Origin: Pocillopora damicornis
Taxonomy: Eukaryota
Length of the DNA stretch: 64,000 bases
Assembly (NCBI RefSeq): GCF_003704095.1
Contig: NW_020846127.1
Location: 1 to 64,000 of the forward strand
Direction: 5' to 3'
Shown here: positions 25,801 to 43,800 of the stretch, in pieces
Layout of the letters: every line of letters begins with the position of its first letter
How positions within the stretch are numbered: position 1 is the stretch's first letter
Made by a program: the position numbers

Positions 25801-28800
25801 CGTAACGTGACTTGCGCATATGAGACCACATGATCCTGTCAGGTTTGAGACACAACAAACACAAAGCTGTCGAAGCCTCTACTCGTAGTAAACTTTTGTA
25901 TATTTGCATTAACTGTTTTGGACATCTCACAGCGCATTGGTCCATCGTTACGATACTTAGATGTGTTCCAAGGTTCCTAAGCGTAAAATCCATACGTCAG
26001 CCATCTGATCGGCTATGAAGGTGTCTCTTGATCTGTCGGTCAATTTTCATTTCTTAGCTAAGCGCGCGGTATTAACTTGCGCAGTCTAATAAAATGAGAA
26101 GCTTCTCATGGTTTGTATGGTAGTACGCTTGGATAATACAGCACTCTCGTGAGCCAAATGCGCATTCCGATTAGAGCAATTTTTCACGCAGTCTCAAAAA
26201 CAGTCTCAATGGTCGATCAGAACTAACGAAAATATCACACGGAGCCAATCAGCACTCAAAGAAAAAAGGAGTACGGGAAAACGCGAGGGACTAAGTCTAT
26301 GGTTTTATCTTGGAGTCTAAGCATAGTTGGTTGAGAAGATGGCACACATTTTGAAGACATTTCACGGGGCGAATTACACCAAAACCATTCTAGTCTTTAA
26401 AAAAATCGAGCTCTTTTATTTCTCCTTTCACAACATTACAACGTGGCACAAAACAACTTTCTTTATACGCATTTCGTTCATGTGCGAGGGGACTGGTAAC
26501 AAATTCAAAAACCTACAAAAAAGCTTTACTGTAAGTTCGTCATAAAAACCCGTCTGAGATCTCGCGATGAAATGTTCTATTTCTCTGATTTCAACCGAAA
26601 ACTGATGACTTCCATCCAAACAAACGGTTAACACTCTTTCCCGTTTATTCTTCATAAGTCTTCATATTTGTAAAGGCTGAAACATAAGACTTCCCCACTA
26701 TCACAAATTCGGCACCAACTGTAAGGCATTGGAAAGGTGCTATGATTCGACTTTTTTTCTGCTACAGCAAATAATAATGAAAAAAAAGAGACCAAATAAG
26801 ACCCAGCTTTATATTATCATATTCATAGAGTTTTCATTAATGGACTTTCTACCGAATGCTATCGCTTGAGTTTGAAATTTTCTTTGATCTGTAATAGGCA
26901 CGGAAACAATTCCGTAAACGGACATAGAACAATCAAATTGCACGGAGCAATTTGATTGTTCCTCGAATCATTTTTTTGGCTTTCAGGGGGCAGATTCATT
27001 TCGCTTTGTTGTCCTTAAGGCTTTGTTACTTACTTTGCGGGCCTTATCGACTAGGAGCGACTAATTTCCTCTGGCGTTTAAGTCCAAATGAAGAAACTCT
27101 ACGACAAAATTCCTACCACGGAATTAACCCCCTCCCCCCTTAAAAGTTAAACCCTTGTGATAACCAACTAAACTCTACGGAAAGCGCGAAATCACATCAG
27201 TTTCATTCCAGACTTGAAGGCTGAGCATCTTACGGAGTGGTCACCTTGCCTTGAAATCGAGTTTTTTCTGGAGCAGGTTTGTTACACTGCGGGCAGTTTC
27301 TGTAAGCATCTTCGATGACTTTCCTGCAAATCAGCAAAAGACGAAAACTGGTTCAACGGGTTTCTAAAAATGTGGTATACGGGTTTGCCTAACACGCACG
27401 TTACAAAGAAACGGTTGTCCCAAATAGCAACGAAACTATCAGCAAAATTAATCTTCACTTGATTCCTGACAAAATTTAGCATTCTCAAAAGTGATAGACT
27501 TGTAATTTCTTTTCACAATATGTATGCATAATTTTAGCAAACAGGTGATAAGAAAAGAGAAACTTTCCGCCGGAGTCTTCTTGATTAAACAATTAATTCT
27601 CCTTTCTAATTTACCCGCAAATGAGTGAATTCTAGAAGAGAGAATTACTAATTTGATCTTAGTGGTTTAACCCTTTACCCCCAACATCAGTGTCTATATT
27701 CTCCATACTATTCATTATACATTTCCCAAGGTGCTGACAAAGAGAATTTGTTTAATAATCAAGAGCTGCTTCGGTTGATGATCATTTCCTTTATTCCCAT
27801 GACCTTAATGTTTGATTCAAGGGTGATGTTGTAAGGAGAAATTAAATTCTAGTCACTCTTACGAGTTAAAGGGTAAACTCACCATTCAAGACGGATATCC
27901 GAAGGATTTAAGGGAACTACTGGGAATAACTGGAGTTCCCCCTCAAGACTTCCGCAACGGTTATAAACAAATATTCCAGTCTTGTTCAAACCAAATTCTG
28001 TAGACAGGAGACCCGGGGTAGGCTCCTCGAACATGCCATCAGTTTGATTCCAGGACTGAGAGAAAACATTCTGGCCAACCACTGTCATGAAAACAATGTC
28101 ACCCATCTCGCTGTAGATGCGAAAAATGTGTGTAAGAATATAAAGAGCGGCTACTAATCCACTCGAGCCACAAGCCTGACCTTGATGCTTCGTGGGGAGA
28201 GCTATTTCTTCTTTTATTTTGATTAGGATAACCTGTTTTTATTGAGACAAGTGGGCTGAATTTTTTGGTAGGGAGCCCTACAGTGGTACCTTACTGGAAT
28301 TAAGTAATTGTCCTACTAACCGATTAACCTTTATCTTCCTCTGCGAAAGAAATCGCTCGGTAAACATTTATCCTTTAGAAAAGCCAACCTTAGAAACGTC
28401 AGCTCTCTTCCGTGGCGAATTTACATTATCAACTCAGTTGATTAAACCAATTGAAATTATCCATTTCGAAATAGTTGCTCGAGTATTATAGTAACCCCAC
28501 GCAGAGTGATTGAGCGAGAGGTGACGTAATCTTCGTCCGACGAGAGCGCCCCTATCTCTGTTGACAGCTGAACGAAAGAAATAACCGATGACTTTCGGTT
28601 GCACTCTTCACTAACGACTTACCTCCCCTTAGCGACCTCACGCATCTCGTCCATTTTCGCAATGGCCTTGACGCGACAGTCAGCCTGTCATCAGACTCTC
28701 TGCCGTCAAGCGGAGTTTATCACCCCTAGGACCACCACGGATCCCTGTGCCCGAGCGTCGAGCACTGGACCCATGGATGGCCGCTGTCATCGTCACCGTC

Positions 28801-40800: not shown

Positions 40801-43800
40801 ACTTTTTTAAATTCTTTATTATATAAAACAAATAGATTCCAAGTTGCCGTGCGTCTGTTCAGTCTGTTCTGTGATCTATTACAGAACAGACGCACGGCAA
40901 CTTGGAATCTATATTTTTTAATCAGATGCTTATCACTTTAATGAGATGCTTATCAGATGCTTATCAACCAGTACAGTTGTCCACTCTAAGGTGTTTCTTT
41001 TCGCCGAATCAGTGTTAGATCAGTCGTTGTTACGGGTGATGAGGTAGTAGTGGCATCAGATTGAGGCTGTGACTCGACACTCTCTGAACTATAACTGGCT
41101 GAAAATTCGGATGACGTACTAGGCTTGTTTGTGGTGGCCTGGGTTGCAGTAGTGGTCGTCTTAATCGGACAGTGTCGTTTACACTTCGAACCTTTTTTGG
41201 TATATTCCTTTATCAACGAATTCCTGCCATTGAAATAATAGGCAGTTAAGGACTACATATTGCTAGTGATAACATAATTTTTAGAGAATTGAGAACAATC
41301 TATAGATTCTATAATCTAGAAAGTGGTGATGCAAAAGGTTTGTCCCAAGACAGAAAAACCTGCCGCATCTCATATATCTATAAGTACCTACTAGAGAATG
41401 ATGAATCAAGATTATAGAGACTAATTGACACGACTAAAATCGAAATAAAAAATCGGGCGCTAGTGTCAAAAAAAACCTAGTGTCTCAAATCCGAAATCGA
41501 CCACGAGTGGCCAAAATCCAAAATCAGACACAAAAGTGCAAAATCCAAATTCGGGCACTAGTGTCCAAAATCCGAACGTGACACTAGTGTTCAAATTCCA
41601 AGGACGGACACTAACTAAAATCTTTCAGCAACTGGTTTAAAGATGAAGTGTCATGTAGCTTACCGTACAAACGGAAATATCAGATAGCTGCGAGGCATCT
41701 TAAAATGATAAGCCAAGAGTCCGCAGCGATCGAAGATGAGGAAATCGTCCTTACTTCCTCCTAACAATCCCATGATGTCTCGGTCTGCTGGCTCCTGGTA
41801 GACTGGGAACGACACTCTCCTTTGTAGCTCTGAGATGGAACCTGAAGCTCTCTTCATGTTTAGAATCATAAAAGAAATATCCGTGAAATTCCTGTGCGGA
41901 TGTAAGAAAAGAGAGTAATTTGTTTGCGTTGGAAATTGTTTCTTAGCAGTTTTAAACTAATGAATAAGAATTACCACCTTGAAAAGTATAAAGAGTTCAG
42001 TGCTTTGTTGCTGCTCGTGGTTTGGACCTGAAAGATTACATTCGATCCGGGTCAATTCCAATTCCCAAAGAAAACAAATCCCATGACCGACAACTTTTCA
42101 CGAAAGCGAGGATGCTGGAAGGTTTTGTGGGGTCTGGGGACCACGTTTTCCAAAATGATTTACTGAACTTCAGCTTTGCGTTGCATTGAGGAGAATAAAA
42201 CCTCCTCCACTTACTCCTCCCCTCCAAAACTTCAATATTTTTCTCTTTTGCAAGGGCTAAAGAAAATGGAGTGAAAGACGCCCTACCTCTTCTTAACGAC
42301 CCCTTTGAGCATTCGTTCCATCATCTGAGCCTGCCATTTGCAAAATTGTCAGCTAGCGAGCATCAGTCCCAGGAGTACCACGTGACCTTTTGATCTTGCT
42401 TCAGCCAATGGGTTTACTTGTTTTATCGACCAGGAGTGAGGCCGCTGGCATATTTTCGCGCTCTCTGTTAGCACCAAGAACGAAAGCGACGCAACCAAAA
42501 TCGACGTGGTAATCTCATGCATTGCGTTGAGAAGTTCCTCTCCTAAACTACAATTACCTGCAGAGGCGAGCACTACGCATAATAAGCACTAATGATTTAT
42601 CTTATAGACAGGCTTTAGAAGTTTTTAACAAACCTACCTTGTATGACAGGAGAGAAGCGATTGGTAACTCAATGTTTCAAGAGGTAAGTAATAACAACAA
42701 TCACAAGCTTTATTCGCTACCTTGGCACGTTGCGAACACGGAAAAATCGCAAGTTCCAAGTCCCTCGTTTTAAAACCAATCGTTTTAGAGACAGTTTTAT
42801 TGTAAGCCATTGCCAATAGCACGTCCTTGTACAACTCATATATATTAATTGATCTGATTTCGAATAATTTTAGTTGTATCTTAATTAATTTAGTGTTTAC
42901 ATAATGATAAGCTTTATTATTGTTTAATTCTTATGAATTAACTTTCTTAATTTTCATTATATAATTTACAGTTATGATTAATTTACGTTTTACATTTGTA
43001 AAAATTATCGTAATTCAGCCCTCGGGCTGCAAGGGTAATTTTAATAAAACTATCTATCTAGTCTATCGAAAAAGAGAAAGAAGGGTTTGAGTATAACAGA
43101 GTCGCATCCGTTATTCAGTATTGAGTTGAAAATCCTCGTCCCCTCCGATACAGACATACTCAAAATGGTCCTCTCGGCGTTGTCTGAACGACAAGTCGGT
43201 CAACCACAGATGGCCCAAGCTCCAGCTGTGAGATGATCATCTTACGCAATAGCGGTGATGGCGGACGTATAAGAGTTTGTATGGGAATATTTACGACCGC
43301 TCTAAGGAATAAAAAAAATACGTCAAATTCTCAATAGAAATACCTCACCTTACTTCCACAGCGTATCGTTTGTTATCTGACCGCTTACTTTGAAGAAAAT
43401 AACTCATTTTAGCGAGTTGTCCATTTCGAGGTTTTCTACGTACATAAGAAAAGCTCAAGGATGAACACTCCATTTCCGAACGCCCGATCCGATAAGCTTT
43501 TTTTATTTACGTTGAAAACCTCGAAATGGACAACTCATTAAAATGGGCTCTTTTCATCAAAGTAAGTAGTCAGACAACAAGCGATACACTGTGGAAGTAA
43601 GGTGAGATATTTTTATTGAGAATTTGACGTATTTTTTTATTCCTTAGAGCGGTCGAAAATATTCCCATACGAACTCTTTGACTGGTATGGCGCAAGATGA
43701 TCATGTTACAGCTGGAGCTTGGGCCGCTCTCAGCCTGAAGATGTGTTTATTACAGTTCTTTTTTATACGCGCGGAAAGATCGCGCAGTTTTACCCATCGC

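Follow-up and report, generated by a model that had tools for sequence, protein, structure and literature searches.

Two genes of the selenoprotein P (SelP) family are located close together on contig NW_020846127.1 of the coral Pocillopora damicornis (NCBI RefSeq assembly GCF_003704095.1), and one of them carries six in-frame TGA codons in its first exon. The question raised by this locus is whether such a gene is read through its TGA codons to give a selenoprotein, and how it is related to its neighbour, which has only one. We analysed positions 1 to 64,000 of the contig (the window), which contain no N anywhere, have a G+C content of 33-42% and find their best named protein matches in stony corals (Stylophora pistillata and Oculina patagonica). 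The three genes of the stretch of interest, in the order gene A (SelP-like, one TGA), an opsin gene and gene B (SelP-like, six TGAs), are all on the minus strand. A previous reading made from the sequence without database searches (the sequence-only reading) had proposed an old tandem duplication that split enzyme-like and selenium-rich roles between the two copies. Taken together, our data make it likely that there was an old local duplication of a gene for a secreted selenoprotein with a SelP_N domain, that both copies are functional, that each has a tandem pair of selenocysteine insertion sequence (SECIS) elements and that the six UGA codons of gene B encode selenocysteine (Sec; U in the motifs below).

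Gene A (42522..40986) has three exons, 233 codons and a TAG stop codon. Exon 1 (42287..42522, 236 nt) starts with ATG, encodes a hydrophobic N-terminus followed by a conserved Cys before Q-R-P, and ends in phase 2. It also contains the one in-frame TGA of the gene (42351..42349, codon 58), which is the only in-frame stop before the TAG and which lies in U58-Q-F-C61, that is, in the U-x-x-C redox motif of SelP_N/SELENOP; the single Sec codon and the motif had both been recognized in the sequence-only reading. Exon 2 (41664..41891, 228 nt) encodes the core of the SelP_N domain, and the coding part of exon 3 (40986..41223) encodes a Ser/Thr-rich tail that ends at the TAG, has no further TGA and matched no Pfam family. 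Protein searches were run exon by exon for both SelP-like genes, so that the scores of the two genes themselves are exon-level scores. The curated Pfam cut-off for SelP_N (PF04592) is 23.2 bits, and both exon 1 (26.2 bits, E 6.1e-06) and exon 2 (63.6 bits, E 2.3e-17) of gene A are above it.

A search among longer proteins with gene A exon 2 returned five proteins, and relatives of this gene range down to ~68% identity. One of the five, P0147, is an uninterrupted open reading frame (ORF) of 233 aa that is 96% identical to gene A over exon 2, has W at the position of the TGA and reproduces all junctions of the three-exon model. A sequence search of the PDB with P0147 gave 0 matches. The closest named relative is P0148, 'selenoprotein Pb-like [Stylophora pistillata]', which is 91% identical over exon 2 and shares both SelP_N and the Ser/Thr-rich tail with gene A; from this similarity we take it for the Stylophora orthologue. 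P0148 is only 167 residues long. Its first residue is the Met that follows the Sec codon, which leaves out the presumed signal peptide together with the conserved Cys and U-x-x-C, and the comparison indicates that the public model is truncated at its Sec codon. Another relative, P0150 (72% identical over exon 2), comes from the mmetsp set, a collection of marine microbial eukaryote transcriptomes. Gene A is the conservative copy, with a single Sec in U-x-x-C and no Sec-rich tail.

Gene B (28870..27230) also has three exons, but is shorter, with 189 codons and a TAA stop codon. Exon 1 (28623..28870, 248 nt) starts with ATG, encodes a hydrophobic N-terminus and ends in phase 2, and the translations of both genes open with a hydrophobic stretch of ~20 residues. 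The 82 codons of this exon include six TGA, 0 TAA and 0 TAG codons, and there is no frameshift. The TGA codons are codons 24, 26, 28, 55, 60 and 61 (28801..28799, 28795..28793, 28789..28787, 28708..28706, 28693..28691 and 28690..28688). The first three give U-x-U-x-U; these are followed by U55, four residues, U60, U61, three residues and C65, so that an exact U-x-x-C motif is absent and U-x4-U-U-x3-C stands in its place, as the sequence-only reading had described with its six Sec and remodelled motif. Exon 2 (27883..28110, 228 nt) encodes a diverged SelP_N-like core, and the coding part of exon 3 (27230..27323) a short tail with C-x-x-C that ends at the TAA. There is no in-frame TGA in exons 2 and 3 of either gene before the TAG of gene A and the TAA of gene B. 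Neither gene has the Sec-rich C-terminal domain of SELENOP proper.

The homology between gene B and gene A stays in one frame on either side of the TGAs. The third TGA of gene B aligns with the conserved Cys of gene A before Q-R-P and the fourth aligns with the gene A Sec. In a four-way alignment, the gene A Trp in K-W-Q-A (42336..42334) aligns with the sixth Sec of gene B in U-U-Q-A (28690..28688), and the two codons, TGG and TGA, differ by one base.

A search among longer proteins with gene B exon 1 found a single protein, P0152, among 125 candidates. P0152 comes from a different source, where it was called as a read-through ORF on a genomic contig. Its alignment with gene B exon 1 is free of gaps and has 55 identities in 81 positions. 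W stands at all six TGA positions, and 11 of the 244 residues of P0152 are W overall. This is as expected if the ORF caller had read TGA as Trp (table 4). The spliced ORFs of the family behave in a different way: all five (P0127, P0128, P0129, P0131 and P0132) start at the Met directly behind the last TGA, which is expected if stops lie just upstream in them too. The same five ORFs match both splice junctions of gene B and the sequence of its exon 3. The opsin gene ends in TGA, so TGA is an ordinary stop here and any recoding must be gene-specific.

Downstream of the gene B TAA there are 8 sense codons and then an in-frame TGA-AAC-TGA-TGT (27206..27195), which would read U-N-U-C. This stretch may be what is left of a tail that contained Sec, or it may be due to chance. 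We rejected a C-terminal Sec tail as the main reading of gene B because the TAA sits where the ORFs of its relatives end too.

The two genes share their structure as well as their strand. Both introns are in phase 2 in both genes, as had been noted before: exon 1 (236 and 248 nt) leaves two bases over and exon 2 is 228 nt in each. The intron sites are at homologous positions, the first five residues before a D-I-x-F-M block and the second just before an x-x-I-x-x-A/E-Y block. The sequence-only reading had called the 228-nt exon 2 identical in the two genes, which is correct for its length only; in sequence, the two pieces share 8 of 36 residues where their products align best locally. BLASTP comparison of gene A with gene B gave E 2e-7 for exon 1 and E 3e-4 for exon 2. 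Comparison of the family profiles by hhalign gave a probability of 95.1% (E 3e-8, 87 columns), and in hidden Markov model (HMM) searches, for which both sets are tiny, the B-family HMM recovered 5/5 A-family proteins and the A-family HMM recovered 12/14 B-family proteins at E < 0.01. These comparisons support the view that genes A and B are true but old paralogues, and thereby the earlier description of them as two same-strand genes of the SelP family. The separation of ~12 kb given previously holds: we measure ~11.2 kb from the 3' end of gene A to the ATG of gene B and 13,652 nt between the two ATGs (42522 and 28870). No third SelP-like copy was found in the window by tblastn with all six exon pieces.

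A full-library search with gene B exon 2 found 26 proteins at E ≤ 0.001. We inspected 17 of these; the remaining nine are 363-752 aa long with 3-6 short matched stretches. Sixteen of the 17 form a clear family with the blocks W-N-x-T-D-D, F-V-Y-D-R-C-G and E-W, and the other, P0134, was set aside because it is repeat-rich and looks unrelated. Relatives of gene B range down to ~45% identity. A PDB sequence search with the B-family profile gave only seven chance-level matches (E 0.79-1.7) and nothing related. In an unrooted tree (from which P0121, P0126, P0128 and P0136 were omitted as near-duplicate, partial or internally deleted), one branch with 100/100 support splits the 6 A rows from the 13 B rows, and the branches of the B rows are much longer; the tree has no outgroup, so the split is undated. 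Since each type of gene has relatives of its own (down to ~45% for B and ~68% for A), the duplication predates the divergence of the sources sampled. The strong divergence and old duplication proposed earlier are thus borne out, and the comparisons indicate that the gene B family is the faster-evolving one and is unnamed in the databases searched. As to whether gene B groups with SelP_N proteins, the profile comparison, BLASTP and the intron sites say that it does and the Pfam cut-off that it does not; we interpret gene B as a diverged member of the SelP_N superfamily that fails the curated family test.

If both genes are selenoprotein genes, SECIS elements are expected in their 3' flanks. A eukaryotic SECIS element has AUGA, then 9-13 nt, AA in a loop or bulge, a helix of ~10 bp and GA on the 3' side. 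Both strands of the window were scanned for segments of up to 70 nt in which ATGA is followed 9-13 nt later by AA, and which have a 3' GA and form ten or more helix pairs. There are two such hairpins downstream of gene A. The first (40222..40284; ATGA at 40272, GA at 40234..40233) has a 10-bp helix and an A-rich loop and is ~0.71 kb past the stop codon, and the second (40106..40170; ATGA at 40158, GA at 40119..40118) is followed by ATTAAA at 40100..40095. There are also two downstream of gene B: one at 26603..26667 (ATGA at 26655, GA at 26616..26615), 575 nt past the stop codon, and one at 26493..26555 (ATGA at 26543, GA at 26506..26505), with AATAAA at 26420..26415. The core spans are 40272..40233 and 40158..40118 for gene A and 26655..26615 and 26543..26505 for gene B; the latter pair had been seen in the sequence-only reading and agrees with where the stretch flagged there begins. 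In keeping with the general definition, AUGA is followed in all four by 11-12 nt and AAA(A), the helix has 10 bp, and GA comes 1-2 nt after it.

The spacing of the hairpins within a pair is 114 nt for gene A and 112 nt for gene B. The two pairs align one to one; the remaining 3' flanks do not align. RNAalifold analysis of the first hairpins of the two genes (pair 1) gave 10 helix pairs, of which five are unchanged, two have one-sided changes, three have compensatory changes and none is broken. Comparison of the single folds of the second hairpins (pair 2) gave the same result (5, 2, 3 and 0), so that over both 20 of 20 helix pairs are kept with 6 compensatory changes. The fold of gene B hairpin 1 has a z score of -3.93. 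When the window was searched with a covariance model of pair 1, only the two sequences used to build it were found (70.8 and 69.7 bits), with 13.7 bits (E 0.94) for the best of the other matches; the model is thus uninformative on pair 2. No other ATGA...AA...GA hairpin was found by the pattern scan from either stop codon to the candidates. From pattern, fold and covariation, but not from Rfam, we read these hairpins as two probable SECIS elements per gene. The other two loci found by the scan (35279..35226 and 44780..44745, minus strand) are not beside any TGA-containing ORF that we saw. Nine of ten items stated in the sequence-only reading were correct, and the one count that was wrong concerns these elements: gene A had been given one SECIS, and its 3' flank has two SECIS-like hairpins, so the contrast of one against two between the genes disappears.

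The RNA of gene B exon 1 is itself predicted to be unusually structured. The minimum free energy of the 248 nt is -121.4 kcal/mol (z -6.45), and none of 200 dinucleotide shuffles was as stable. The same was true when the coding capacity was held constant: 0/300 synonymous-codon permutations (z -4.89) and 0/300 sequences with random synonymous codons (z -6.78) were as stable. Neither of the two exons folded as controls showed such an excess: z was +0.91 for gene A exon 1 and -1.19 for gene B exon 2. The predicted fold is a row of local hairpins (28667..28869, minus strand). The first (28869..28837, -18.8 kcal/mol) includes bases 2-3 of the AUG start codon; the second (28821..28791) has both UGA 1 and UGA 2 in its 3' arm; the third (28782..28730), of 23 bp and -37 kcal/mol, begins 5 nt past UGA 3; and the fourth (28710..28667) contains UGA 4-6.

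Several observations weigh against the reading of both genes as functional selenoprotein genes with paired SECIS elements. Firstly, the exons of gene B, taken singly, have no Pfam SelP_N match at E ≤ 1, and SelP_N is matched by only 5 of 15 members of the gene B family, and weakly (best E 0.0017). Secondly, gene B has Gly at 28037..28035 (exon 2 codon 25), a site in the W-N-x-T-D-D block where 14/14 other aligned family members have Asp. Thirdly, the W residues of P0152 could in principle be encoded by TGG. Fourthly, no Rfam family reaches its gathering score anywhere in the window: for SECIS_1 (RF00031), with a gathering score of 35 bits, the full model gave 20.5 bits for gene B hairpin 1 (E 0.088 in a 196-nt search) and 19.1 bits for hairpin 2, and the gene A hairpins had no match at E ≤ 10. 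RNAalifold found no consensus structure for pair 2, where MAFFT had left the 3' arms out of register. Additionally, the six loci that the scan gave for the window, each of them on the minus strand, compare with 2.31 ± 1.55 in 100 dinucleotide shuffles (maximum 7), and four poly(A)-signal-like hexamers separate the gene A stop codon from its SECIS candidates. Finally, the basis of the structure predicted for gene B exon 1 is the thermodynamics of one sequence.

The alternative that survives best is a division of labour, as in the sequence-only reading, in which gene A would encode an enzyme and gene B a selenium store or carrier, the pair being an analogue of vertebrate SELENOP2/SELENOP1. It fits the difference between a single Sec in U-x-x-C in gene A and six Sec in 189 codons in gene B, the hydrophobic start that both proteins have in common with secreted proteins, and the longer branches of the B-family rows relative to the A-family rows. 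However, the SelP_N-like domain of gene B is complete, and Sec still occupies the canonical position. Three of the extra Sec lie around the redox centre and none in the C-terminal part, where the gene ends in TAA like its relatives, and the number of SECIS candidates is the same in both genes. We regard this alternative as unlikely. Because gene B keeps its presumed thioredoxin-like domain and the canonical Sec and has no C-terminal tail, a split into enzyme-like and Se-rich copies is too clean as a hypothesis.

A second alternative is that the four SECIS-like hairpins are due to chance, and that the real SECIS elements are elsewhere or fall outside the pattern of the scan. The Rfam scores, below threshold for gene B and absent for gene A, are in its favour, as is the yield of 2.3 such loci per window in shuffled sequence. 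The total count of SECIS-like loci is indeed unremarkable; what is remarkable is where four of the six lie, that they are paired and that they covary. Two of these four are 3' of each gene on its coding strand, forming equally spaced and alignable pairs within flanks that otherwise cannot be aligned. None of the 20 helix pairs is broken, six being compensatory, and there is no alternative ATGA...AA...GA hairpin between the stop codons and the candidates. Chance is an improbable explanation for this arrangement.

It is very improbable that gene B is a decaying duplicate in which the TGAs are nonsense mutations. Such decay would account for the lack of a Pfam SelP_N match, for the Gly at the otherwise invariant Asp and for the fact that family ORFs in the databases all begin after the last TGA. 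It does not account for six in-frame stops that are all TGA and are not accompanied by a frameshift, for W at the same six positions of the 68%-identical P0152 with conserved neighbouring residues, for exons 2 and 3 being open in spliced ORFs of several sources, or for two SECIS-like hairpins that are kept by compensatory changes. By these comparisons gene B is not a pseudogene and appears to be coding through its TGAs. Alternatively, translation of gene B could begin no earlier than the Met behind the last TGA, so that the upstream part would be a leader and the product, of ~119 residues, would have neither Sec nor a signal peptide. ORF callers interpret the transcripts in this way (P0127-P0132), but this reading has hardly any chance of being correct. 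The 70 codons before that Met show conservation at the protein level (55/81 identical in P0152) and are homologous in the same frame to the SelP_N exon 1 of gene A, and a product of this size would miss the redox motif as well as the first strand and the first helix of the domain.

If gene B is a functional selenoprotein gene, as we favour, all six in-frame UGAs of its exon 1 would be read as Sec. The U-x-U-x-U would lie just past the presumed signal peptide, with its third U in place of the gene A Cys before Q-R-P, and the other three Sec would surround the redox site in U-x4-U-U-x3-C. Decoding would presumably be SECIS-dependent and processive, as in SELENOP, and the stable hairpins predicted over the start codon and the UGAs may help or gate it. 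The product would be an extracellular, selenol-rich protein with a redox, selenium-carrying or metal-binding role, and could make diselenide or selenylsulfide bonds. We suggest, as a possibility about which we remain tentative, that gene B represents a conserved secreted family of stony-coral proteins derived from SelP_N in which the layout of SELENOP is reversed, with six Sec at the mature N-terminus and around the redox centre and none in a C-terminal tail, all encoded in a single exon, and with mRNA hairpins over the start codon and the UGAs that are under selection.

There are parallels in the SELENOP genes of chordates. According to Tico et al. (2026, PMC13134290), vertebrate SELENOP1 and SELENOP2 (SELENOPB) split at the root of the vertebrates, and, like the coral pair, they combine a multi-Sec with a single-Sec protein and a thioredoxin-like SelP_N domain; they also have two downstream SECIS elements, of which the coral hairpins are the candidate counterparts. 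As invertebrate homologues are placed there outside the clade of both paralogues, the coral pair would be independent of the vertebrate split, in agreement with what the sequence-only reading had supposed. The position of the additional Sec differs: in vertebrate SELENOP it is in the C-terminal tail, whereas in gene B all six are in exon 1 of a gene of only 189 codons. In amphioxus, Jiang et al. (2012, PMC3473315) describe a tandem cluster of Bf.SelP_a and 3NSelP with exon organisation in common. There, the single-Sec copy has two SECIS, as gene A probably does, and resembles it in having no C-terminal Sec, and the other copy resembles gene B in that the number of Sec is raised in the N-terminal part. 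In amphioxus, however, the whole Trx-like domain is triplicated and there are two C-terminal Sec, whereas in gene B Sec has been added both within and before one domain.

Mariotti et al. (2017, PMC5727441) describe an initiation stem-loop and UGA-linked structures (SRE1-3) in vertebrate Selenop mRNA, and the hairpins predicted for gene B exon 1 are similar to these: a very stable one opens the coding sequence, and others overlap or adjoin the UGA codons. The Selenop elements are established there by covariation in 131 mRNAs and by assays, whereas those of gene B derive from a thermodynamic excess in one sequence. The first gene B hairpin also differs from the Selenop initiation stem-loop in that it includes two of the AUG bases. 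SELENOL, with two nearby Sec capable of forming a diselenide (PMC13134290), is like gene B in having close Sec at a thioredoxin-like redox site; it belongs to a different family, and a diselenide in gene B is conjectural.

Among cnidarians, PF04592 is mentioned as detected in Seriatopora and Favites and as undetected in Montipora and Acropora (PMC11639872), and Jiang et al. (2012, PMC3473315) found no SelP in Nematostella. In our searches of the literature on cnidarian and coral selenoproteins and on SELENOP evolution we found no description of a coral multi-Sec SelP paralogue, or of a SelP_N protein with its extra Sec at the N-terminus and around the redox site rather than at the C-terminus, although an earlier one is possible.

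The opsin gene between the paralogues (31565..32536, minus strand) is intronless, as had been noted previously, and has 323 uninterrupted codons with its TGA stop at 31567..31565. Its ORF matches Pfam 7tm_1 with E 2e-37 and has a Lys nine residues before N-P-x-x-Y, which is presumably the retinal-binding Lys of helix 7, the equivalent of Lys296 of bovine rhodopsin. There are 141 relatives, the best of which is 98% identical and the best named of which (Oculina patagonica) is 64% identical. It is an intact, ordinary coral opsin that is tied to the SelP genes by position only, and its location between them looks incidental. In Nematostella, all ASO-II opsin genes are reported (PMC10512536) to have introns, and the ASO-I genes and some cnidopsins to have none. 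By analogy, the lack of introns is an indirect hint only, which may point toward the ASO-I or cnidopsin clade. In Stylophora, the relative of gene A and a partial opsin with 81% identity both list a longest contig of 1,080,478 bases, which is only a hint that the linkage with gene A is conserved. There is a G+C-rich, near-perfect foldback hairpin at 32637..32707, ~100 nt upstream of the opsin ATG.

A number of repeats are scattered over the locus. An interspersed repeat in the 3' untranslated region (UTR) of gene A (40552..40687, minus strand) is 75% identical by blastn over 137 nt to a copy at 27683..27819 in gene B intron 2, and a further copy at 31408..31490 is inverted and lies just 3' of the opsin gene; the copies are 75-77% alike. 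The copies at 40552..40687 and 27683..27819 have a SECIS-like appearance (ATGA...AA...GA), but were rejected as SECIS because the repeat is interspersed, has an inverted third copy and is intronic in gene B. A second repeat pair is found at 28404..28450 and 39624..39670, a foldback with 40-nt arms lies within the gene A 3' UTR (40824..40920), and an inverted repeat with 144-nt arms lies upstream of gene A (43212..43725). Matches of the palindromes to miRNA families of Rfam were far below the gathering scores (E-value mode, 20 kb and 1.1 kb) and were discarded.

Other genes in the window include three paralogous single-exon EF-hand ORFs that are clustered at 755..1369 (minus), 2249..2794 (minus) and 6471..6980 (plus), with E 1e-25 to 2e-16 to Pfam EF-hand_7. 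There is a type I phosphodiesterase-like exon at 12795..13262 (minus; E 2.2e-08) and an exon of MCLC, a Mid-1-related chloride channel, at 47256..48068 (plus; E 1.7e-27). Just upstream of gene A and on the same strand is an ORF of 372 codons (45221..46339) with a weak C2H2 zinc-finger match.

To our knowledge, multi-Sec proteins are rare and the serial reading of UGA codons outside the C-terminal tail of SELENOP is almost unstudied. Gene B would offer a small test case, with three UGAs within 15 nt from codon 24 and three more 27 codons on, set in strong predicted hairpins and with two candidate SECIS elements downstream, and could be used to study processive recoding, RNA structure in coding regions and the selenium-dependent gating of translation. 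Should it indeed represent a conserved secreted coral family of the kind suggested above, corals would have arrived independently at an extracellular protein with several Sec, and nature would have provided, in this gene, a compact model of how UGA codons near initiation are recoded processively. For the biology of corals, gene B would add a secreted, selenol-rich protein for redox or selenium handling that standard gene calls truncate.

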